From the sequence record NC_073055.1: a DNA stretch of 44,488 nt, one strand, 5' to 3'. This DNA comes from Escherichia phage vB_EcoD_Opt212. Under the pieces are notes generated by a model, which worked only from the letters and a program-made list of their open reading frames with translations, was not told where the DNA came from and ran no database searches. How positions within the stretch are numbered: the first letter of the stretch is position 1; every line of letters begins with the position of its first letter. The translations under genes were made by a program, and so were the position numbers. Of this stretch, positions 2,078 through 41,434 are shown piece by piece.

Positions 2078-3220
2078 TTACTTCAACATTTCCGGGCTAA
2101 TGGTTAAGCGCGCTACTTCGCCGTAGTTGGCGCTATAGGTGATGACGTTTGCGCTGCGACCGGACATCCAACCGCCACGACTGGCGTAGGCGTCTTTCGC
2201 TGCGAGCGTCCGGTGCTGTTCAACAATCATGTTGCGGGATTCTACAATCTTCTGGTGGTGCAAGTGGCCTACGTGCGCGTAGCTGTACTCACTGGATCCG
2301 AAAGCCTGTCTGAATTTAGAAATCATAACCTGCTCGATAGCATCGAATCGCGCTTTGTGCCCGTGGTGGAAGAATAGCGTGGTCTTACCGTGCTGCACCA
2401 TTTTGTAGACGTCCGGGGACGTATCCACATCGACGCGCGGCTCGTTCTCGTACAGAGTATTGAACATCTCAGCCAGCCAAATCATACCCGACTCGTCATG
2501 ATTTCCCTGGACGATTAGCAGTTTGACTTTGTGGTGTTTTTGCAGCGCCAGTTCGACGACGTTGCGCACCATGCGAATCATGTATCGGACCAGTTTCTGG
2601 TATCGGGTGTCGGCGTCCAGTATGTGACCACTTGCCGGAGTGACAGCATCGAGGCTATCAAAGTGCGCCATATCACCGAGGATATTAATTACGGCAGTGC
2701 CTGCGTCCGGGGCGCGTGCGAAGGCTTCGACAAACCAGCGGTAGAACAGGTCTTCGGCGATCGCCATATCCCAGTCTTCGCCAGTCTCCTCGCCCCATGC
2801 CAACATGCCCAGGTGGAAGTCTGACACGGTGTACAGGTTGAGCAAGTCGAGCGCCTGGATCGGTACTGGCGGGGCTTTTACTGGCGCTGCCGGTGTGATT
2901 TCGCTGTTCATACCCTCGACAACAGCGCGCATGGCTTCGAGTTGGCGCTCTTTGTCCTGCTCAGTGATGACCCACGACATGACCTCTTCGCCATTGCCGC
3001 GCACCAGGGCCGATACGCGCTTAACCCCAAACCCATCGGCAACGCGCTTGCGTATTACGGCATCGTTGCCGTGTCCAATGCCTTTTTTCGACAGGCGGGC
3101 TTTCCGCATATAAACATTGCGTAGGGCAATCCCGTATTTCTTCGCAATATCTTTAACCGTAGTCCCTGCCTGAATTTCTGCGATCAATTGCTCATCGGTA
3201 ATTTTAGTTTGCGGGTGCAT
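2078..3220 (-). CDS. HTH domain fused to calcineurin-like metallophosphoesterase
   Basis: 380 aa; N-terminal HTH-like segment (TVKDIAKKYGIALRNV); phosphoesterase motifs SDFHLG, GDMAHFD, GNHDE, HHGH, GHLHH. Confidence 0.7.
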   Translation of the reverse strand: MHPQTKITDEQLIAEIQAGTTVKDIAKKYGIALRNVYMRKARLSKKGIGHGNDAVIRKRVADGFGVKRVSALVRGNGEEVMSWVITEQDKERQLEAMRAVVEGMNSEITPAAPVKAPPVPIQALDLLNLYTVSDFHLGMLAWGEETGEDWDMAIAEDLFYRWFVEAFARAPDAGTAVINILGDMAHFDSLDAVTPASGHILDADTRYQKLVRYMIRMVRNVVELALQKHHKVKLLIVQGNHDESGMIWLAEMFNTLYENEPRVDVDTSPDVYKMVQHGKTTLFFHHGHKARFDAIEQVMISKFRQAFGSSEYSYAHVGHLHHQKIVESRNMIVEQHRTLAAKDAYASRGGWMSGRSANVITYSANYGEVARLTISPEMLK

Positions 3221-3455: not shown

Positions 3456-3596
3456 AAGTCACCTCACAAATTACCATTCCAATAAATGCCGCGGCGGACC
3501 AGATTGCCAATACCCAAATATCATTACGTGCCATAGTGTAATACTCCTCTTGTTGATTGGTCGCAGTATGGCGCCTATGTTGGTTGCAAGTCAAGC

Positions 3597-6147: not shown

Positions 6148-6413
6148 TTCGCCAGTCTCCAGTGTTTGCCTACCCGCTCAACGGCAGGCTTTCGGCGTAA
6201 TGTAATACGAATCCCCATTGGTTGCAAGGAAGTCCGCACCCTGAAATCGTGTTGTGCTGCGAACTGGTGCAAGTAGCGAGTCTGCGTCAGTGGCTTTACG
6301 TCATCGCGATAGCACCAGTACACAGAATCCCCCACATTCGCATTCTTAGCCCATATTCGTATGCAATGCAGGGGAATATGCCACGAAAGCTGTTTTGCTC
6401 GCCTACGGCCCAT
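6144..6413 (-). CDS. hypothetical protein
   Basis: 89 aa, AAGGGG RBS, translationally coupled. Confidence 0.45.
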   Translation of the reverse strand: MGRRRAKQLSWHIPLHCIRIWAKNANVGDSVYWCYRDDVKPLTQTRYLHQFAAQHDFRVRTSLQPMGIRITLRRKPAVERVGKHWRLAK

Positions 6414-6422
6414 TTTGGCCCC

Positions 6423-6728
6423 TTATTTCGCAAGCTGGGTGAATAGCTCACGCTGGGCTTTAATCCGGGCGACGTTTGTCACTGCCTTATCGCCAATACC
6501 GAAGCGATATGCCAGGCGCTCGCGGGAGAATGCACGCGCGTATTCGTGGATTGCCTTCGCCAGCGTCTTCAGTTCGTCAAGGCTGGCATCCATGCCGTCG
6601 AGCGCATACATGATTGCCTGCTGGGCCAGTATTACTACATGCGCCGCGCGGTCTGCGTTGCCGTTCAGAGCCTTCGCTTCGTCCAGCTTCGCCAGGGCCA
6701 TTGCGTAATTCCAGATTAATGCTCTCAT
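6423..6728 (-). CDS. hypothetical protein
   Basis: 101 aa, GAGGAC RBS, first gene after long intergenic region. Confidence 0.55.
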   Translation of the reverse strand: MRALIWNYAMALAKLDEAKALNGNADRAAHVVILAQQAIMYALDGMDASLDELKTLAKAIHEYARAFSRERLAYRFGIGDKAVTNVARIKAQRELFTQLAK

Positions 6729-6909
6729 CGTTCAGTCCTCATGTTGGTGTGCAACCAATATTAATCACGCGCATGAAAAAGTTGATCGCTATCTGCTGCA
6801 ACGGCAAACTGCATTTCCCACTCTCCATTATCCAACCCGCATTGGTTGCCTAGTTCATCCGCGACCGCACTTCGCATCATGCTGCCGTGTATTTTGCAAT
6901 CCCCGGATT

Positions 6910-7083
6910 TTATTCAGTCTCAGACGAGGGGGGCCATTGACCCCCGTCTAGTCTGAAAGACTGGGGTGCTGTCCCGCTGTCCCGCTCCTCTGGAAGCCGC
7001 GCCATCCGGGGCGGGACGGGGGTGCTGTCCCGCTTTGTCCCGCCCGCTTTTTGTCCCGCTTTTTGTCCCGCTTACTTTATGCA
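6910..7083. repeat. GTCCCGC-iteron element, copy A
   Basis: 75-bp block identical to 34727..34801, then 6 direct and 1 inverted (T)GTCCCGC copies; overall similar to 34727..34899. Confidence 0.8.
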
Positions 7084-7157
7084 GTTTTATTGCATAACTA
7101 TTCATAATAATCACACTACACGGCAACCAATACGACCAGTTAAAAACACCCAAAATG

Positions 7158-7240
7158 GCAACCAATGCGCGCAAAATTTAATCTTTTAGCGATATGGGAA
7201 TTCCCATATCGGCAACCAATACGCGCAAAATTTAATCTTT
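7158..7240. promoter_or_regulatory. 22-bp perfect palindrome CGATATGGGAATTCCCATATCG (7190..7211) flanked by two ~29-bp direct repeats
   Basis: direct reading; repeats GGCAACCAAT(G/A)CGCGCAAAATTTAATCTTT; second copy overlaps primase stop. Confidence 0.7.
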
Positions 7241-9506: not shown

Positions 9507-9836
9507 TTACTTAGAAGTTTTATTATTGCGTACCCAGGAGCGCACTGTGCTCTGATTAATTCCGGTTAGCTCTGCAATCATCGCCCATGATTTGCCCTCG
9601 GCGCGCAAACGGATAACCTGTTTTTTGTATTCTTCCATTTCTTCATTGTGTTTTTGCAGCTTGCTTGCTGCCGTGCCGTTGAGCAATTCCAGCTTCGCGG
9701 TAAGCTCCTTCTCAGCACGCGATAATCTGGACACTTCAAATAACAGAGTATCCACCGCATTTGTGTAATACCAGGATTTACCCGCTTCGCCGCGGATTGC
9801 ATTAGATAACACTTCAATTGCTTCTTTGATATTCAT
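9507..9836 (-). CDS. small HTH DNA-binding protein (putative regulator)
   Basis: 109 aa; C-terminal HTH (GKSWAMIAELTGINQSTVRSWV); first gene of leftward operon. Confidence 0.6.
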   Translation of the reverse strand: MNIKEAIEVLSNAIRGEAGKSWYYTNAVDTLLFEVSRLSRAEKELTAKLELLNGTAASKLQKHNEEMEEYKKQVIRLRAEGKSWAMIAELTGINQSTVRSWVRNNKTSK

Positions 9837-9971
9837 AATTCAGTCTCCTGTTGGTTAATGACCAATGAAACTACACCTAAAACCACAAGGTGTCAAATCC
9901 TTTGGATATTGAAACGGGCGCGCACGCGTGTAATAATAATTCCCGTCTCATTGTCTTGTCTCTTATTGGTT

Positions 9972-10006
9972 AGCGCCGGTGCATTTTGCCTCGGCGCTTT
10001 TTTTTT
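9972..10006 (+). terminator. terminator-like hairpin with T-run
   Basis: AGCGCCG...CGGCGCT stem then T9; lies upstream of rightward early promoter. Confidence 0.4.
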
Positions 10007-10016
10007 GAATTAGTTG

Positions 10017-10046
10017 TTGACACCCATCCTGCAACCAATCTATCAT
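10017..10046 (+). promoter_or_regulatory. sigma70-like promoter (TTGACA-N18-TATCAT)
   Basis: hexamers read directly; spacer contains TGCAACCAAT motif. Confidence 0.45.
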
Positions 10047-12667: not shown

Positions 12668-12902
12668 AGTATTCGCAATATTATTGATGTTTGTTATCGG
12701 CGCGCTGGGCTTTATCCTGCATTGTGTGCATGGCGTGTTAATGGTGGCGTGGATGATTCGCCATCCGACCCGCTGGCTTGACGACGGATATAGTGACGCT
12801 GCCGTCGACTGGGTGGAGAAGAACATCGACCGACCGCCGTTAAGCTGGGTAGAGAACGCTACCGACTACGTTACCAGAAATCTTTTTAATAAAAGTGCTT
12901 GA
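12660..12902 (+). CDS. small membrane protein
   Basis: 80 aa, N-terminal TM segments. Confidence 0.5.
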   Translation: MNKVFAILLMFVIGALGFILHCVHGVLMVAWMIRHPTRWLDDGYSDAAVDWVEKNIDRPPLSWVENATDYVTRNLFNKSA

Positions 12903-12927
12903 CCGCTTAGGCGCAACCAAGTAGATT
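12899..12927 (+). promoter_or_regulatory. sigma70-like promoter (TTGACC-N17-TAGATT)
   Basis: spacer contains GCAACCAAG motif; upstream of 12993 gene. Confidence 0.4.
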
Positions 12928-12992
12928 AGCAACCAAGCCGAACGGGGTGGCTCATAATAACCCCGATACATGTGAAAATGAGGAATTGGAAA

Positions 12993-16488: not shown

Positions 16489-16763
16489 CACCAGAAGGCA
16501 AGATTCAAAGTCACCTTATGAAGCTGGTGAAAGCCGTCGGCGGATTCTGCCGTAAAGTGGCATGGGAGGGGCGCGCAGGTGCGCCTGACCTGATTATCAT
16601 CATCAACGGCAAAATAGTGTTCGTCGAAGTGAAGCAACCCGGCGGCAAACCGAAGCCGCACCAGGTACGTGAACATGAGCGAATGGCCCGCCGCGGTGCT
16701 GACGTTCGCGTTATCGACAACATATCCGACTGCGATTTATTGGTTGCTGAATTGGTCGCATAG
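16485..16763 (+). CDS. VRR-NUC domain nuclease
   Basis: 92 aa; GAPDLIIIINGKIVFVEVKQPGGKPKPHQ matches the VRR-NUC pattern. Confidence 0.65.
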   Translation: MTPEGKIQSHLMKLVKAVGGFCRKVAWEGRAGAPDLIIIINGKIVFVEVKQPGGKPKPHQVREHERMARRGADVRVIDNISDCDLLVAELVA

Positions 16764-17243: not shown

Positions 17244-18668
17244 ATGGCACGTTTCCGACGTCGCGAATATCAGAAGTTGATAACCGCGTTCATCCTCAAG
17301 CATAAGCGCTGCAATATTTGGGCGACAATGGGGTCGGGTAAAACCGGCGCGACCATGTGGGCGCTGAATAAAATGTTCCAGACTGGCATCCTGTCCAACC
17401 AGGATGACCGCGTACTGGTGCTGGCCCCGCTGCGCGTTGCGTCCGGCACATGGCCCCCGGAACAGGAGAAATGGCGCTTCCCAGCCTTGCTGGTAGTAGA
17501 CGGCACTGGGCCAGAGAAGGACCGCATCGCTGCGCTTGAGAGCGACGCTAACGTGGTTTGTATTAACTATGATGTAGTTGAGTGGCTGGTCGACTATTAC
17601 GGCGATGCGTGGCCCTTTACGGTCGTTGTTGCCGATGAATCGACTAAGCTGAAAGGCTATCGTAGCAAGCAGGGGAGCAAGCGCGCCCGCGCACTGGCAG
17701 CGATTGCACATAAACACGTCAAGCGCTGGATTAACCTTACCGGCACACCCGCACCAAACGGACTGAAAGACCTATGGGGGCAAACGTGGTTCATCGACGG
17801 CGGCGAACGCCTCGGCAGTAGCTATAAGGCATTTACCGACCGCTGGTTCATTAGCAAGCCTGTTAAGCCTGGCAGCTTCACTATGCAGCACGCTCCGCTA
17901 AAGAACTCCGAGAAAGAGATACAACAACGTCTGTCAGATGTATCCCTCACCGTTGACGCGGCGGAATACTTCGGGTGCGACAAGCCAATCTATACGCCGG
18001 TTGTTGTGGACCTGCCGAAGAAAGCGCGTAAGATTTATGACCAGTTTGAAAGCGAGCTATTTGCAGAACTGGAAAGCGGAACAGTGGAAGCGGCGAACGC
18101 GGCGTCGAAGACAATTAAGTGCCTTCAGCTTGCTTCCGGCGCGGTGTATAAGGTGGACGAAGACGGCGAACGGACCGACGAGTGGGTGAAGATTCACGAC
18201 GCGAAGCTGGACGCGCTGGAAAGTATCGTGGAGGAGTTGAACGGTGCGCCGTTGCTCGTTGCGTATCAGTATAAGCATGACCTGGCACGTCTTAAGAAGA
18301 AATTTCCGCACGGCGTTGCGTTGGGTAAAGGAAAGCAGGGCAATAAGGATATGGAAGCATGGAACAGGGGCGAGATCCCCATCATGTTTGCACACCCGGC
18401 ATCGGCGGGCCACGGCCTTAACTTGCAGGACGGCGGTCATCACCTGGCAATCTTCTCCGACACCTGGAACTTTGAACACTTTTCGCAGATCGTTGAACGT
18501 ATCGGGCCGGTTCGCCAGATGCAAGCCGGACACCCTCGACCAGTATTCGTCTACATTATCCAGGCTCGCGGGACACTGGACGAATTGGTCGCCGAGCGTC
18601 GCGACAGTAAGCGAGACATTCAGGACGACTTGATGGAATACATGAAAGCTAAGAAGGCGCGCAAATGA
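17244..18668 (+). CDS. SNF2-family (DEAD-like) helicase
   Basis: 474 aa; Walker A GSGKTG; DExx box VVADEST; LTGTPAPN motif; start moved to ATG after upstream stop. Confidence 0.85.
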   Translation: MARFRRREYQKLITAFILKHKRCNIWATMGSGKTGATMWALNKMFQTGILSNQDDRVLVLAPLRVASGTWPPEQEKWRFPALLVVDGTGPEKDRIAALESDANVVCINYDVVEWLVDYYGDAWPFTVVVADESTKLKGYRSKQGSKRARALAAIAHKHVKRWINLTGTPAPNGLKDLWGQTWFIDGGERLGSSYKAFTDRWFISKPVKPGSFTMQHAPLKNSEKEIQQRLSDVSLTVDAAEYFGCDKPIYTPVVVDLPKKARKIYDQFESELFAELESGTVEAANAASKTIKCLQLASGAVYKVDEDGERTDEWVKIHDAKLDALESIVEELNGAPLLVAYQYKHDLARLKKKFPHGVALGKGKQGNKDMEAWNRGEIPIMFAHPASAGHGLNLQDGGHHLAIFSDTWNFEHFSQIVERIGPVRQMQAGHPRPVFVYIIQARGTLDELVAERRDSKRDIQDDLMEYMKAKKARK

Positions 18669-19179: not shown

Positions 19180-19184
19180 ATTGG

Positions 19185-19213
19185 TTGCATAATCATATTG
19201 GTTGCATTATCTT
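19185..19213 (+). promoter_or_regulatory. candidate promoter (TTGCAT-N17-TATCTT) within tandem ATTGGTTGCAT motifs
   Basis: hexamers read directly; immediately precedes a terminator hairpin, so assignment is uncertain. Confidence 0.3.
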
Positions 19214-19246
19214 AAGGGTGTTCCGAAGGGAACGCCCTTTTTTTTA
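19214..19246 (+). terminator. rho-independent terminator
   Basis: GGGTGTTCC/GGAACGCCC stem followed by T8. Confidence 0.65.
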
Positions 19247-20640: not shown

Positions 20641-21107
20641 AACTACTGATTTGTGATCTTGATGGCGTTATTAATGGTTCGAGTGATGCACGCGCCGACC
20701 TGGTTCCGGGTATAAAAACCAAATCAACATTTTGGGCGAAGTGGCACAAAGCGCACGTACGCGAAGACCTGAACATGGATATGCTGCCGCTGCTGCGCAT
20801 GTACAAAGAGCAAGGCTTCGAGATAGCGTATCTGACTAACCGGCAGCGCGAATGCTGGGAGACAACCGCCGAGCAACTGGAGGTCTTCCCCGCAGGGCGG
20901 TTGTTTATGCGCCACATGCTGGACGACACCCCTCCGCCTGAGTTTAAGGCGTGCGCCGTGTTCAAGATGGTCTGCTATGCAGACGTGTCGGAACTGGTCA
21001 TCATTGAAGATTGCGAGAAGAACATCGCGGCAATTCGTCGGGCGTGCAGCGATCTGGTGCCGAAAATTTACGCAATAAATGTTGCAAAATTTACTTGCAA
21101 CCAATAG
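20637..21107 (+). CDS. HAD-superfamily phosphatase/nucleotidase-like protein
   Basis: 156 aa; N-terminal LICDLDGVI (DxDG motif). Confidence 0.6.
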   Translation: MKLLICDLDGVINGSSDARADLVPGIKTKSTFWAKWHKAHVREDLNMDMLPLLRMYKEQGFEIAYLTNRQRECWETTAEQLEVFPAGRLFMRHMLDDTPPPEFKACAVFKMVCYADVSELVIIEDCEKNIAAIRRACSDLVPKIYAINVAKFTCNQ

Positions 21108-21124
21108 GTTGGTTGCACTATAGT
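21095..21124 (+). promoter_or_regulatory. candidate promoter TTGCAA-N18-TATAGT overlapping palindrome TTGCAACCAAT-AGG-TTGGTTGCA
   Basis: direct reading. Confidence 0.35.
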
Positions 21125-24502: not shown

Positions 24503-24522
24503 AGCTAAATCCTCGTAATTGG

Positions 24523-24550
24523 TTGCAATCCTGGCTGAGCGGTGTAATAC
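24523..24550 (+). promoter_or_regulatory. candidate promoter (TTGCAA-N16-TAATAC) for lipoprotein gene
   Basis: overlaps ATTGGTTGCAA motif in divergent region. Confidence 0.3.
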
Positions 24551-25833: not shown

Positions 25834-28800
25834 CTACCAGCTACCAGTAAGCTCACCAATCTGCACGCGGAGAACGCCGTTTCCGTCCTTCACGCTGATT
25901 CTTGTGTTCGTCTGTTTCATCCCGCCGCCGCTACCGGTGCCCAGGTTGATAAACGTTCCATCTTTCCCTAAGCGCCAGCCGCGCGTGCTGCCGTCGTAGT
26001 TATTCGATTGCAGCGTGTCTGTTATCTGCGCGAAGTTGATGGACGCGTTCTTGATGCGTGCCGTGTCGATATACACCGCGCCACCGTCCACAATAAACGC
26101 AGACGACAGCGTCCCATTGGACGGATGCATGATGTAGAACTGGTCCGCCTTGAACGCAATACGCGATTTAACCTCGTTGCCAGACGTCACAACGGAAAGC
26201 TGCATACCCGCATCATAATAAGTCCTGTTATATGTCACGCCAGCCTTAAGGCTATACGTGGCGCTACCACCAGAGTGGTTAAACGAGGACGTCATCTTCT
26301 GCTCGATAGCGGCGGACTGCTGACCGAACTGTGTAGCGACCTGGGTCTTATATTCCGCCAGCGCTCCCGCCACGTCTGCGGTTGCCGTTTGTACCTGCTG
26401 GATGGCGGCTTCCTGTTCCCCGAACTTAGCGGCAACAGTTTGCTGGTACTGGGCGAACGCTTGTTCCTGTGTGCTCTGCGCGGTCTGCAACGTGTGGATC
26501 GCAGCTTCCGCGTCATCAAGTCGCGTGCCGATCAACGTCTCCAGTTGAGCGACCGCCTTGTGGGCGTCCGCCGCCACGTTATACGCGACCGAGATTTCCG
26601 CATAAATACCCTTGTACTCGGCGCGGGCGTTGAACAATTGCTGCGCGTCGGTGAGCATCGCCTCGTAAATACCCTGCGGGATCGTGTTGATTGCTTCCTG
26701 GAAGCGTTTACCATCCTCGGAAGTCAAGAACTCGTCATCAAGCCCCTTCATGTACTCGTCAACTTTGTCACTCACCTGCCCTTCAAACGGGGCCGACCAG
26801 TCCGACAGGTTGCCGATTTTATCCGCTACACGGGCGCGCAACTGCTGGTAAATTCCGAACTCCAGCGATGTTTGCGCATACTCCGCCCCCGGATATGGGA
26901 CGTTGGTAAGGAATTTCCATTCAGTCTCACCGGTCTTGCGCACTTCAAGCTCGGTGTACGAGATATCAGTAGCGGCGTTGTTGTGGTTCCACTTCCACAA
27001 GATCTGGTGAAGGCCCGAAATAGCGTTGGTGATGATTGGTGCGTTAAGCCCACCGAGACGACCTTCCACCGGCGTGATGGCGGACGACACCCACGGAGAT
27101 GAAATCTCGCCCATACCGATCGCGCGGACGCGTGCCTGGTAGTTACCGGAGAACACGTTAGGGATGTGCGCCCCATTCGACGCCGTGCGTGGGATATTCA
27201 CCCAGTCGTTACCCCACTGGATTTCCATATTCTGAAGGCTGGTACGCCTCCACTGGATTTCATACACCACGGCATCCTTCACCGGAGGGAATACAATATC
27301 CACGTTGGTGATTAGCTGCCCTTGCGATGAAATCTGCGACGGGGTGATGGTCACGGATTCCGGCCCCTTCATTACCCCGTCAGGCACTTGCGTAAAGATA
27401 CCCGGATCAAGGCGCGCGCCATTATCAACGGCATCATACTTGCTATCGTTGTACTCAATCCCGCGCACCGAGAAAGTGCTCGTAGAGTCGTCATACTCCA
27501 GGTCGGTGATGCGGAATTTCTGCAACTGGATATCGTCGCCATCAACGCAAAACGGCTGGTCAGGAATAGGGTTGGCGTCCAGTGCGGTTTTTAGCGTTAC
27601 CTTGTTGCCGTTGACGCTGGCGATCTCGCGAGTCTCCACATTACCGCTATCGGTGCGTACCAGGAACTTATCGCCAGGGCGGAATGTGATTTCGCTGTCC
27701 GTGTTCAGCACGGTACGAGTTCCGGGGTCCGACAACAGTCGACCGCCGCGCGTCTCAAAACCGCCAGAAATGTTTGTATCCGCGATCGCGACTACGCTAC
27801 CGGGAATAAAGAATAACCCTTCCATGCCAACTTTAAAGCTAACTTGCTGGTCAAGCTGGTTGGAAATTAGCGCCCAGTGCCCGCGACGCTGCGCTTCAGA
27901 TTCACGCGTACAGCCGATCGCCGTAATATCGAGACGGTTAATCTTATGGCGGCGTACCAGTTCGACACGTTGCCCCGTTGCGATAGCATCTTCATAGTGG
28001 TTCTTCGGGTTGCCGTATGCTACTGCGAACGTGGAGTACCGAGTTTTCTGGCTACCGGACGCGTAGTCGAAGCGCCCATCAATAACCGAGGCGTTGGTGA
28101 TAGTGTGCGACACTGCTGCGACCGGTTGGTCACTGACGATATTCAACATCTGGTTGCCCCACCAGGTCATTCCGGCGAAGATGGCGGCTAAATCCTTAAG
28201 CACGGTCCAGGCATCCGTCTGTGACTGAATGTACATATCATTCTTAAAGCGGATTTCTCGGCCACCGTTGCCGTCGCTGACCAACTGATCGCAGCGCTGC
28301 GCAATCTGGTAGAGCGCGTATCGGTTTAGCATTTGCGGTTTGATACGCCGACCGAGGCCGAAGCGCTCAGTAATACAAATATCGTACCAGTGCCACGCAG
28401 GGTTATCCGTCCATGCGCGTTTAAACGTGCCGTCCCAGTCCCCGGAATAGGTATGATTGATCGGGTCGTAGTTGTTCGGTATTAGAACTTTGCGACCTTT
28501 GCACTTAATGGACACGCGAGGGATGTTCTGGAACGCTTTGGCGTCGAACTCCACAAACAACAGCGCGGTTAGCGGGTAACGCAGGCGGGCGTCAATAATC
28601 TCAGTGATGGACTGCACCCGGATATCATTAACCACTTTCGCCGATGTGGAGTCTGCCGTTATGCGGTGCACCTCCACGCGCCAGCCGGTGTTAACGTTCG
28701 GAGGTAATTCGATGCGGTGGTCGCGCTCATATAGCGACATTGTTTTACCAACGGCGGCGAATCTGAACTCACGCGGGTCGGCGTTATCCGTATACACAAC

Positions 28801-34726: not shown

Positions 34727-34899
34727 TTATTCAGTCTCAGACGAGGGGGGCCATTGACCCCCGTCTAGTCTGAAAGACTGGGGTGCTGTCCCGCTGTCCC
34801 GATCGGCTGAAAACCGCGGCAGCACTGGCGGGGACGGGGTGCTGTCCCGTTTTGTCCCGCCCCTTGTTTGTCCCGCTTTCTGTCCCGCTTACTTTATGC
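34727..34899. repeat. GTCCCGC-iteron element, copy B
   Basis: first 75 bp identical to 6910..6984; similar iteron array. Confidence 0.8.
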
Positions 34900-34924
34900 A
34901 ATAAAACTGCATAGGTATGCACAT

Positions 34925-35043
34925 TTACAGGGCGTGACAAAACGGGACGTCCCGCCTGTCCCGCTTTGAGTTTATGCAATGAAAGTGATTAGATATGCGG
35001 TTTTACAGAGGCGGGACAAAACGGGACGTCCCGCCTGTCCCGC
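34925..35043. repeat. two tandem ~78-bp units each with 12-bp palindrome CGGGACGTCCCG
   Basis: palindromes at about 34943..34954 and 35022..35033 with flanking GTCCCGC/GCGGGAC. Confidence 0.75.
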
Positions 35044-35047
35044 TTCA

Positions 35048-35724
35048 TTATGCGGGGTTCTGCTGCGCCATCTCATCAAGCGCGATTCGTTCCATTAGCT
35101 TGATATCTTTAAACGCGCGCTGCTCGTTTTCGATACCGTGCATCTTAAATAGCCACTCCAGCACGCCGTAGTCGATGCCGTATGCGCCACCAAAACCGGT
35201 GCGCCATTGCGTGGAGCAATCTGTGAAGACTGCGACTATCTTCGCGTTGTCAGGCCATAGCGCAACAGGCGGACAAACATCTTCAGGGGCCGCACCCCAT
35301 AAACTCGCGGCTAAATCTTCGGAGGGTGGCGGCGGGCCATAAAAGCGTCGCGCCGCCTCAATTAGTTTTTTTCACGCAATCCCATCAGTTCAAGATAGTA
35401 CGACGTGTGGAACACCCCGAACGCGCGTGGGTAGTTGACCACCAGGCGGCGGACGTTCTCCGCGTTAAATTCGTCCGGCAGATTCCAGCCTTCTGCGACG
35501 TGCATGATGGCCTCGACCATAACGTTAAAGCCGTCCGGGTCATTGTCGTCATATTCCGACAGCTTTCGTTCGGTGTCCTGCATGGTTTGCGAAAATTCGT
35601 CGATCGGGCGGTGGCGGACGGTAAACGTCATCTTGCCCGGTTCGTTCTCACCTGGGCGCGGGATCTCAATCGGCAGCTTAAAGGTCGGCTTAGGGTCAAG
35701 TGTAAAGAGTGGTGCTTTAGCCAT
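35048..35724 (-). CDS. tail assembly chaperone GT (-1 frameshift product)
   Basis: A_AAA_AAC slippery heptamer at about 35365..35371, 2 codons before the G stop; -1 frame stays open about 105 codons to stop at 35048. Confidence 0.55.
35362..35724 (-). CDS. tail assembly chaperone G
   Basis: 120 aa from ATG with GGAG RBS (track ORF starts at upstream TTG); between major tail and tape measure genes. Confidence 0.65.
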   Translation of the reverse strand: MAKAPLFTLDPKPTFKLPIEIPRPGENEPGKMTFTVRHRPIDEFSQTMQDTERKLSEYDDNDPDGFNVMVEAIMHVAEGWNLPDEFNAENVRRLVVNYPRAFGVFHTSYYLELMGLREKN

Positions 35725-40608: not shown

Positions 40609-40638
40609 TTGCAATCCGCGTATTGGTTGCACTATATT
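40609..40638 (+). promoter_or_regulatory. candidate promoter TTGCAA-N18-TATATT with tandem ATTGGTTGCAC motifs
   Basis: direct reading; upstream of plus-strand island. Confidence 0.4.
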
Positions 40639-40667
40639 GGTTGCACACCAACAACGAGGACACAAAA

Positions 40668-41183
40668 ATGAGACTGACAAAAGACATTAAAAACCAGATT
40701 CTGGCTAACATCCTGCGCGACCACGAAATCGCGACCGAAGCCAAATCAATCATGATGGACTCTCGAAATCTGGCGTACGCCATTACGATGGACTGTATGC
40801 CGGAAGGCATTCATTCGTTCGCCGAGCTACGTGAGCGCATTGCAGCAATCGGCGGTGACCCGTCGCAGATGTACGGCGTCTGTGTGTACACCAACAAGGC
40901 GACGTATAGACATGACGCCGACAGCCCATATGGTGTAGGCAGCGTTTACGACGCCACTTTCGAAATCAACGCAGGCGGAAACGTCCGTACCGTGTCATTG
41001 AGCGGAGACGGACACCGAGTCCGAGTATATCGCGGATACGGGGAGTATAAATACATGAATAAACTGTCTCCCGATCTCGGCGATATTGTGCCTGGGTATG
41101 AGGAAATTTTGTTAGCGTCAGTGTGCGAAGTCGATGACGACGGGAAAGCGCTGCCGATATATATATGCCACGCGGTCGTATAG
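40668..41183 (+). CDS. hypothetical protein (opposite-strand island gene 1)
   Basis: 171 aa; GAGGAC RBS; no recognisable motifs. Confidence 0.55.
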   Translation: MRLTKDIKNQILANILRDHEIATEAKSIMMDSRNLAYAITMDCMPEGIHSFAELRERIAAIGGDPSQMYGVCVYTNKATYRHDADSPYGVGSVYDATFEINAGGNVRTVSLSGDGHRVRVYRGYGEYKYMNKLSPDLGDIVPGYEEILLASVCEVDDDGKALPIYICHAVV

Positions 41184-41434
41184 ACTACCCGGCGGACCAT
41201 GATTTCTGTAAGCGCCTGGACCGTAACGACAAGGCCCGCCGTGAGTTGCGTGCTAAGTATGACGCGTTCAAACTAACTGTTACCGGCGTGCTGGATATGC
41301 ACAATACCGATAAGAAGCTGATCAAGGCGTGGCCTGAAGTGGAACAGTTCATTCCTTACCCGGGCAAGCCGAAGTCCACGGCGGTGGCGCTGGACGTGAA
41401 GACGTTAAACGAGATTTGCGGTATTCCGCGCTAA
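41165..41434 (+). CDS. hypothetical protein (opposite-strand island gene 2)
   Basis: 89 aa; overlaps gene 1 by 19 nt; start uncertain. Confidence 0.4.
   Translation: MPRGRIDYPADHDFCKRLDRNDKARRELRAKYDAFKLTVTGVLDMHNTDKKLIKAWPEVEQFIPYPGKPKSTAVALDVKTLNEICGIPR

Follow-up and report, generated by a model that had tools for sequence, protein, structure and literature searches.

There is a short repeated word in the genome of Escherichia phage vB_EcoD_Opt212 (NC_073055.1). The whole stretch of DNA that was analyzed, 44,488 nucleotides (nt), is called the window here. The word, A/G-TTGGTTGC-A (also written RTTGGTTGC(A)), is 10 bases long and has about 20 copies in the genome. It was followed up at 40609-40645, where a predicted promoter holds two copies as a direct pair (40622 and 40636, 14 bp from start to start). 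The copy at 40636 is part of the palindrome TTGGT-N5-ACCAA and lies just 5' of the ribosome-binding site (RBS) of an Nmad5-family gene, the ATG of which is at 40668. The promoter and both copies are kept in five Dhillonvirus genomes, with a different downstream gene in HK578, CHD5UKE2, and SO-1. The word most likely belongs to a phage operator network of a known type that was previously undescribed, and the protein proposed to read it is a candidate only.

Megablast of the whole window placed it in the genus Dhillonvirus (HK578-like virulent coliphages), with 94-97% identity to phages JLBYU37, SM_W22, and bob; its genes are collinear with those of JLBYU37. Because the window starts inside terL and ends at the portal gene, it represents one complete, circularly permuted genome. 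The gene map was built from the list of open reading frames (ORFs) and from synteny, and it leaves 7% of the window non-coding. The ORFs of at least 700 amino acids encode the helicase-primase, DNA polymerase I, and tail proteins. A phage RNA polymerase gene is absent, and thus the host RNA polymerase must do all of the transcription. No integrase or immunity module was found in the gene map or in annotated relatives. The genome papers surveyed treat Dhillonviruses as lytic phages.

Exact copies of ATTGGTTGCA were counted on both strands and compared with dinucleotide-preserving shuffles. Nine are present where 0.07 would be expected, and none of the 100 shuffles gave nine. With up to one mismatch there are 18 copies (3.05 expected), and the core TTGGTTGC occurs 20 times (1.60 expected). 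ATTGGTTGCA is also the top-frequency 10-mer of the window, of JLBYU37, and of Sodalis phage SO-1. The recurrence that a preliminary description of this DNA had reported is therefore real. All of the sites listed there were recovered to within 1-4 nt of the given coordinates (checked positions 3579, 6750, 6841, 7157, 7211, 10030, 12912/12928, 19180/19197, 21096/21108, 24518, and 40622/40636). The copies at 3556, 7122, and 16739/16751 and a few intragenic ones had been overlooked.

Most copies lie between genes. The non-coding 7% of the genome holds 15 of the 20 exact cores (binomial p = 5e-14), an intergenic excess far above the expectation against which the preliminary description had asked to be judged. 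Two further cores fall within the 25 nt that end a gene, shortly before the next one begins. Three or four copies are intragenic, at 6217, 29984, and 33333, with a TTGGTCGC variant at 18585. A position-frequency table of the sites has an invariant 8-mer core and two semi-conserved flanking bases, and it is asymmetric overall. Position -1 is A in 14 of 20 sites and position +8 is A in 11 of 20; the table carries no information beyond 10 bp. The copies are single or paired, with direct-pair spacings of 12, 14, 16, 17, 23, 35, and 54 bp from start to start and one inverted pair (21096/21108). Their orientation relative to transcription and flanking genes is mixed, with about 12 forward and 8 reverse in a tally of the site list.

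Every Dhillonvirus that was examined keeps the word, and 9-10 exact 10-mers stand at orthologous places in HK578, CHD5UKE2, SO-1, and JLBYU37. Ten site-bearing non-coding regions were compared across five genomes. Invariant columns make up 81% of the motif and 55% of the other non-coding positions (Fisher p = 3e-12), and by this alignment measure the copies are under purifying selection. The word is also found outside of the genus. Edwardsiella phage eiAU (genus Eiauvirus) has 23 cores where 1.8 are expected; its helicase-primase is 48% identical to that of the window and its intergenic DNA cannot be aligned. The promoter architecture and position classes described below are repeated in eiAU, for example in TTGCAT-17-TATAGT, where the first copy is the -35 and the second lies in the spacer or on the -10. 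Position -1 is G in 15 of 22 eiAU sites, as against A in the window, and such a drift between genera is expected if the reader is encoded by the phage and co-evolves with its site. Three metagenomic contigs (L238-L240) that are divergent and Dhillonvirus-like, with helicase-primases 66-69% identical and DNA about 72% identical, have 0.64-0.93 cores per kb in the same layout.

In Hafnia phage TS33, Jerseyvirus Ent3, and Salmonella phage SaI_NFG_5579, three Guernseyvirinae-type phages with the replication module in common, the core occurs about as often as expected by chance. Thus, the motif is specific to a lineage and not a general enterobacterial promoter trait. A one-base variant, TTGGCTGC, was considered for SaI_NFG_5579 and dropped, since it is not enriched (4 versus 1.8 expected) and its count is inflated by the terminal duplication of that record. 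A tandem-pair scan of a viral contig collection gave no new lineage among the loci inspected; the matches listed were mostly coding repeats with a 27-bp period, Dhillonvirus contigs, and unrelated coding occurrences on one strand. A string search of the literature for the motif gave only primers among the matches listed. The literature surveyed on Dhillonvirus promoters, transcriptomes, and genomes does not mention the motif, promoters, or repeats. Neither a published description of the motif nor any account of gene regulation in Dhillonviruses was found there.

The copies and the promoters around them are collected in Table 1. Promoters were found by consensus scans, with those at 16744 and 24523 coming from an added scan and that at 19184 from a reading of the sequence. 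The claim that copies lie inside sigma-70-like promoters in both orientations was borne out by these scans. At 16744, the promoter TTGCTG-17-TATAGT takes its -35 (TTGCTG) from the 16739 copy and has the 16751 copy in its spacer. The 19180 copy likewise gives the -35 (TTGCAT/GTTGCA) of GTTGCA-18-TATCTT (19184), and the 19197 copy lies in the spacer, 1 nt short of TATCTT (19208-19213). The -35 of TTGCAA-17-AATACT at 24523 (spacer 16/17, TAATACT) is supplied by the 24518 copy. On the minus strand, TTGACT-18-CATACT (3594-3565) contains the 3556 pair, with one copy in the promoter spacer and the other over the -10 and start site. In the GenBank record of HK578, a promoter is annotated at the site orthologous to that at 10017.

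Table 1. Copies of the repeated word in the window, with predicted promoters and the candidate reader gene.
Feature	Position	Strand	Context
Pair ATTGGTCGCA / GTTGGTTGCA	3556..3588	+	Just downstream of lysis-cassette terminator (3624-3603, -)
Motif copy (possible internal promoter, or chance/neutral)	6217..6226	+	Inside 6144-6413 gene; minus strand reads TTGCAA-17-TACATT
Motif copy	6750..6759	-	Leader or promoter of gene starting at 6728
Motif copy ATTGGTTGCC	6841..6850	+	Flanks putative origin region
Three ATTGGTTGCC copies (7122, 7157, 7211)	7122..7220	-	Directly after helicase-primase stop codon
Candidate reader, 109-amino-acid helix-turn-helix (HTH) protein	9507..9836	-	Gene directly upstream of helicase-primase
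Degenerate inverted pair GTTGGTTAATGACCAAT (TTGGT-N5-ACCAA)	9848..9868	.	Immediately 5' of HTH-gene RBS
Promoter TTGACA-18-TATCAT	10017-10046	+	Strongest predicted (11/12 matches); faces plus strand early/replication block (gp46, ATG 10243)
Motif copy	10030..10039	-	Spacer positions 8-17, reverse to promoter TTGACA-18-TATCAT
Promoter TTGACC-17-TAGATT	12899-12927	+	5' of DUF2815 single-stranded DNA-binding protein gene; holds 12912..12937 pair
Two CTTGGTTGC variant copies (12912, 12928)	12912..12937	-	One adjoins -10, other over start site
Direct pair ATTGGTTGCT / ATTGGTCGCA	16739..16760	+	3' end of VRR-NUC gene
Direct pair, 17 bp start to start	19180..19206	+	Directly after HNH gene stop codon
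Inverted pair TGCAACCAAT-ag-GTTGGTTGCA	21096..21117	.	In promoter TTGCAA-18-TATAGT (21095-21124, +), 5' of gp27
Motif copy	24518..24527	+	Between divergent tail-fibre (-) and cor (+) genes, 16 nt 5' of tail-fibre ATG
Promoter TTGCAA-18-TATATT, sigma-70-like	40609..40638	+	
Motif copy ATTGGTTGCA	40622..40631	+	Spacer positions 8-17 of TTGCAA-18-TATATT
Motif copy ATTGGTTGCA	40636..40645	+	Overlaps -10 3' end and predicted start site

When the -10 hexamer is taken as -12 to -7, the 8-mer core falls into four position classes. These are -39..-32 in the forward orientation, where TTGCxx serves as the -35; -27..-20, forward; -22..-15, forward or reverse, with the last base one before the -10; and about -8..+2, forward or reverse. 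Offsets to TANNNT were pooled over four non-redundant lineages and give 7 cases at forward +19, 5 at forward +2, and 13 at reverse 0/1/2, against a mean of 0.95 per cell. Since the classes differ in where and in which direction the copies lie with respect to the -10, the suggestion of a conserved promoter element cannot be kept in the sense of one fixed contact for RNA polymerase. A sigma-70 core element would hold a fixed orientation and distance to the -10 (16-18 bp in the case of a -35), and only the forward +19 class acts as a -35. The TG of the motif, on inspection, is at -17/-16 and not at the -15/-14 of an extended -10. Spacers are 17-18 bp where a MerR-type spacer operator would have 19-20, and the site is asymmetric where such an operator has dyad symmetry. 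The GG/GC offsets of single and paired copies, also on inspection, are 4 and 14-21 nt, and none fits the spacing of a sigma-54 promoter (GG-N10-GC, with GG at -24 and GC at -12). Resemblances to sigma-54, MerR-type, lambda CII (TTGC-N6-TTGC), CytR, and IHF sites were dropped on spacing or sequence.

From this distribution we infer that a protein binds the word. The reading that fits best, and to which we give about an even chance, is that the word is an asymmetric operator whose DNA-binding protein is encoded by the phage and works chiefly as a block to RNA polymerase. The operator would be built into the core of most sigma-70-type promoters of the phage, with one or two copies in each. A copy on the -35, in the spacer beside the -10, or over the -10 and start site would clash with the host RNA polymerase. 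The copies stand in both orientations and in several helical phases around reasonable -35 and -10 hexamers, so that steric occlusion fits better than activation from one face; with host-type hexamers that are already reasonable, an activator is not required. The protein would repress or turn down the promoters of the replication/early-middle block (plus strand, 10-22 kb), the opposite-strand insert genes (cor and Nmad5), and the two minus strand promoters at 3594 and 6750. The preliminary description had proposed operator half-sites for a phage or host regulator. The operator is the part that holds, as the best fit and with the selection on its columns; regular half-sites do not, since the copies are single or in variably spaced pairs. 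Its idea of an operator or promoter role was largely right in spirit.

Comparable systems are found in other phages. The P1 C1 operators are likewise numerous, dispersed, asymmetric, and mostly placed on promoters, singly or in direct or inverted pairs, and the multiple, mostly intergenic, promoter-overlapping copies of the window have this form. By analogy, many operons would answer to a single small protein of the phage. However, P1 is temperate and C1 keeps lysogeny, whereas this phage is virulent and is without the integrase/immunity module that a lysogeny system of that type would have. The site is 8-10 bp and not 17 bp, and the candidate reader is unrelated to C1. The stoperators of mycobacteriophage L5 and cluster A, read by gp71, are 13-bp asymmetric sites with about 25-30 per genome. 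They are similar in copy number, intergenic location, asymmetry, readability by a single HTH, and in having one copy in the main early promoter and many dispersed. Stoperators share one orientation to transcription and block elongation, whereas here the orientation is mixed and the copies are within core promoters. The present phage, in addition, is virulent, and neither its sites nor its proteins are related to those of L5. Lambda Cro, which acts at OR/OL in lytic growth, is a third parallel, since a small early HTH protein that turns down early promoters, operators on the -35 and -10, and autoregulation are proposed here too. Cro sites, in contrast, are 17-bp pseudo-palindromes in two control regions, and the present sites are short, asymmetric, and spread over at least nine promoters and the origin region.

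The leading candidate for the reader is the HTH protein encoded at 9507-9836. The assignment is tentative, and we rate it somewhat below an even chance; we are surer that the site is an operator than of which protein reads it. The C-terminal HTH matches Pfam HTH_23 and Sigma70_r4_2. The protein consists of a long helix (residues 21-79) and a resolvase/Hin-type HTH (84-107), and an AlphaFold2 model with a predicted local distance difference test score (pLDDT) of 87 has a 59-residue helix running into the HTH. Foldseek matches of the HTH are to resolvase/Sin/Tn3, IS21 IstA, and LuxR-type DNA-binding domains; they are weak (E about 1), and the Sin match also spans the long helix. In the model, the protein looks like the 'E-helix plus HTH' module of a serine recombinase without the catalytic domain, and it probably dimerizes through the long helix. 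Serine recombinases (Hin, Sin, Tn3/gamma-delta resolvase) share the long E-like helix and three-helix HTH as the best structural matches, and the half-sites that these domains recognize are asymmetric and about 12 bp long. Unlike them, the 9507-9836 protein has no catalytic domain or GRPR minor-groove arm, and recombination sites are not evident. A 10-bp asymmetric motif would suit a single HTH of the Hin/resolvase type.

The 9507-9836 protein family is tiny, with 34 clusters in a 5.8-billion-protein database, and all contexts examined were Dhillonvirus-like. The protein and the motif co-occur in every Dhillonvirus-like lineage. The first 45 or so residues are hypervariable, and HK578-type phages have a different sequence altogether in their place, which suggests diversifying selection or partner switching. 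The last 60 residues, including GINxSTVRSW, are near-invariant, and this invariant HTH end would match the invariant DNA word. In the metagenomic contigs a perfect core copy stands immediately 5' of the start codon of the HTH gene. Together with the degenerate pair ahead of the gene in the window, this is an arrangement typical of autoregulation. The palindrome TTGGT-N5-ACCAA occurs exactly three times in the window (6744, 9851, and 40637), each with a 5-nt spacer and each just 5' of an RBS, those of the gene starting at 6728, the HTH gene, and the Nmad5 gene. It may represent a dimeric binding mode of the same or a second reader.

Other readers were considered. The HTH-phosphoesterase at 2078-3220, which the preliminary description had named, is unlikely, because its family is found in 2,061 phage records that include a motif-free Jerseyvirus. 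The C-terminus of the helicase-primase was rejected, as it aligns end to end with that of motif-free TS33 and not with eiAU. Nmad5 was rejected since it is missing from SO-1 and HK578, which both bear the motif. A presence/absence matrix left just a small HNH endonuclease and a Dam methylase as proteins that are shared with eiAU and absent from TS33 and Ent3, and tblastx did not find a hidden conserved ORF.

Several observations weigh against the operator and its proposed reader. The TTGCA within the motif is itself -35-like, so that part of the association with the -35 class is built in, and all of the promoters are consensus predictions. The copies at 6841 and 7122-7211 are outside of recognizable promoters. 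The putative promoter of the late/packaging operon (3594) has two copies, which is awkward for a simple repressor that shuts off early genes. No homologue of the 9507-9836 protein was detected in eiAU, which has the motif. The sole analogue there, P858_54, is a 117-amino-acid protein with a GRPR arm and a Hin-type HTH, and its own promoter has two motif copies. Its relationship to the 9507-9836 family is weak (nothing by BLASTP; hhalign E = 0.033), and a 37%-identical relative of P858_54 occurs without the motif in phage MSW-3. It follows that the reader differs between genera or is something else.

Occlusion is not the only way in which a word in promoters can be used. The motif could be a positive element of promoter identity, read by a phage factor (the HTH protein, whose HTH is similar to sigma region 4) or by a modified RNA polymerase that would direct or boost transcription from phage promoters, comparable to a MotA box or sigma appropriation or to a Mor/C-type activator. 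Nearly all predicted phage promoters carry the motif, including that before the packaging and late genes. It replaces the -35 in the forward +19 class, many spacers have the suboptimal length of 18 nt, and the match of the HTH protein to Sigma70_r4_2 would suit such a role. By a reading of the sequence, the copies at 40622-40645 are also about 50-75 bp 5' of a possible divergent minus strand promoter of the scaffold gene. However, activators and RNA polymerase contacts need a fixed position, face, and orientation, and the copies occur at about -39..-32, -27..-20, -22..-15, and -8..+2, with mixed orientation for those over the spacer or start site. The -35 and -10 hexamers are good ones of the host type, as in the 11 of 12 matches at 10017, and copies that span the start site are typical of repression. 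An activator is considered not very likely.

A little less likely again is that the motif is the site of a host protein, an Enterobacterales transcription factor or nucleoid protein, that the phage exploits or evades. The core is common to phages of E. coli, Sodalis, and Edwardsiella, and no single phage-encoded DNA-binding protein tracks the motif in both genera. The ATTGGT part is presumably similar to half-sites of the GntR/FadR type. However, the motif is at chance level in the related Hafnia and Salmonella phages that have the replication module in common, and position -1 differs between genera. No known E. coli factor with the motif as its consensus was identified, and the string search gave no matches other than primers among those listed. 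A virulent phage would pay a price for carrying about 20 strong sites for a host repressor within its promoters. Of the two regulators proposed in the preliminary description, phage or host, the host is thus disfavored, given the absence of the motif from related phages of other Enterobacterales.

Some copies are not in promoters and are found beside the helicase-primase gene. There are 3-5 copies 3' of this gene in the window (6750-7220), nine in eiAU (26868-27640), and 4-5 in each of the metagenomic contigs. The 7122-7220 cluster adjoins an AT-rich stretch and iterons of TGTCCCGC, and two of its three copies are within a longer repeat, AAAGATTAAATTTTGCGCGY-ATTGGTTGCC. An iteron cluster beside an initiator gene and an AT-rich stretch is the organization of the ori regions of Staphylococcus aureus pathogenicity islands (SaPIs) and P4, and the SO-1 record marks the region as a repeat region. 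The motif could on this evidence be chiefly a set of replication-origin iterons for an initiator (the helicase-primase or a partner), with the promoter copies secondary. Short, asymmetric sites (8-10 bp) in either orientation, by a replication gene and an AT-rich stretch and also in promoters, are indeed what DnaA boxes and the P4 and SaPI iterons have in common with the motif. Unlike origin iterons, the copies are not confined to the origin, since 15 of the 20 exact cores are found away from it, for the most part in promoters between 3.5 and 40.6 kb. There is no sequence similarity to DnaA boxes, and the origin-like region has its own TGTCCCGC iterons, which are duplicated at a second locus without the motif. 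The helicase-primase, including its C-terminus, is equally similar to those of motif-free TS33 and eiAU. A primary role as iterons is considered improbable, but it can coexist with the operator model. The cluster suggests that the motif protein also marks or insulates the replication origin, and the same protein would perhaps act at the origin as is the case with DnaA boxes.

A more ambitious version of the operator model is that one word on essentially all promoters and the origin, with a resolvase-like HTH reader that has no catalytic domain, makes that reader both an organizer of the origin and a global governor of transcription that is titrated by replication. We regard this as quite unlikely. 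If it is true, with about 20 sites per genome, replication would soak up the protein and free the promoters, and the phage would have a timer coupled to replication that works without an RNA polymerase or sigma factor of its own. The hypervariable N-terminus would then be an interface to the helicase-primase or the host RNA polymerase.

An RNA-level element (leader hairpin or riboregulator) or a recombination boundary flanking mobile gene cassettes is highly improbable: two copies do share a 30-nt leader with a TTGGU-N5-ACCAA hairpin before the RBS, and several lie exactly at mosaic junctions with differing downstream genes, but there are no Rfam matches, the leader hairpins do not exceed shuffled sequences in stability (z = +0.14, +0.53, and -0.35), orientation is mixed, many copies are upstream of the predicted start site, and 8-10 bp of conservation is too short for homologous recombination.

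Dhillonviruses are common coliphages, with more than 150 records in a phage collection matching the window. The BASEL collection includes them, and they serve in work on defense systems and phage therapy. A word that marks at least nine promoters provides a map of transcription units, and it offers a way into the timing circuit of a virulent siphovirus that depends wholly on the host RNA polymerase. It also supplies promoter and operator parts for engineering Dhillonviruses. Since it is kept across two genera with unalignable intergenic DNA, it is a useful annotation signature.

There are other features near the motif copies. The Nmad5-family gene (Pfam PF18757), at 40668-41434, appears split into 40668-41183 and 41165-41434, and is a single gene of 765 nt in phage bob. 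The split could represent a frameshift or pseudogene, or be due to an error in sequencing. This slot is a mosaic hotspot, with other genes behind the same promoter in SO-1, HK578, and CHD5UKE2. A repeat_region annotated in phage bob was checked and is inside a structural gene, unrelated to the motif. The context of about 30 nt around the 6750 copy (ATTGGTTGCACACCAACA..GAGGA) is that of the 40636 copy. Compared with four other Dhillonviruses (L002-L005), the window lacks 31 bp near 6750, a deletion that took away one of two tandem TGCAACCAATAT copies.

A strong terminator hairpin at 19214-19239 (z = -3.6) abuts the putative -10, TATCTT, of the 19184 promoter. It is possible that 19208-19239 is a terminator/promoter 'reset' module. 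Transcripts from the 19184 promoter would begin in the 5' arm of the hairpin and escape termination, and transcripts from upstream would stop. The segment 9909-10006 has a good predicted plus strand promoter, TTGAAA-17-AATAAT, with an upstream TG and 10 of 12 matches. About 35 nt further on there is a GC-rich hairpin followed by T9 (9973-10006). The transcript would be about 60 nt long, possibly a small RNA, and would come from the control region that separates the divergent HTH gene and gp46. A near-motif, ATTGGTTAGC, is inside this segment at 9964-9973.

A second repeat family is present as near-duplicate blocks at 6905-7075 and 34727-35050, one after the helicase-primase gene and the other 5' of the tape-measure gene. 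Each block has a long GC-rich hairpin, cagtctcagacgaggggggccattgacccccgtctagtctg, then numerous TGTCCCGC(T) iterons and a 'tatgca' stretch rich in A and T. The blocks match 'region B' and 'region A' of the repeat_regions in the SO-1 record, and they are candidate origin or cis-replication regions. There are only six GTCCCGC heptamers in the whole eiAU genome. A perfect 20-bp palindrome, GATATGGGAATTCCCATATC, is found at 7191-7210, between the motif copies at 7157 and 7211. It is present in JLBYU37 and not in HK578, CHD5UKE2, and SO-1, which are without a duplicated segment of about 50 bp.

The octamer ACGGCARC (reverse complement GYTGCCGT) has 54 copies where 4.6 are expected, spread evenly over the window (e.g., 512, 2071, 3065 ... 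44177). It is mostly intragenic and in all three frames (38 sense, 12 antisense, and 4 intergenic), with 41 copies on the minus strand and 13 on the plus strand. ACGGCARC words are the top 8-mers of JLBYU37, SO-1, and TS33 and have 24-29 copies in eiAU, Ent3, and SaI_NFG_5579. The octamer looks like a frame-independent, strand-biased DNA signal of this siphovirus group, perhaps a Chi-like, packaging, priming, or modification site. Edwardsiella phage MSW-3, an unrelated myovirus, has only three copies, and it has a genome-wide repeat of its own in 14-17 copies of the palindromic word CCGGAGCAGCCGG / GCAGCCGGAGCAGC.

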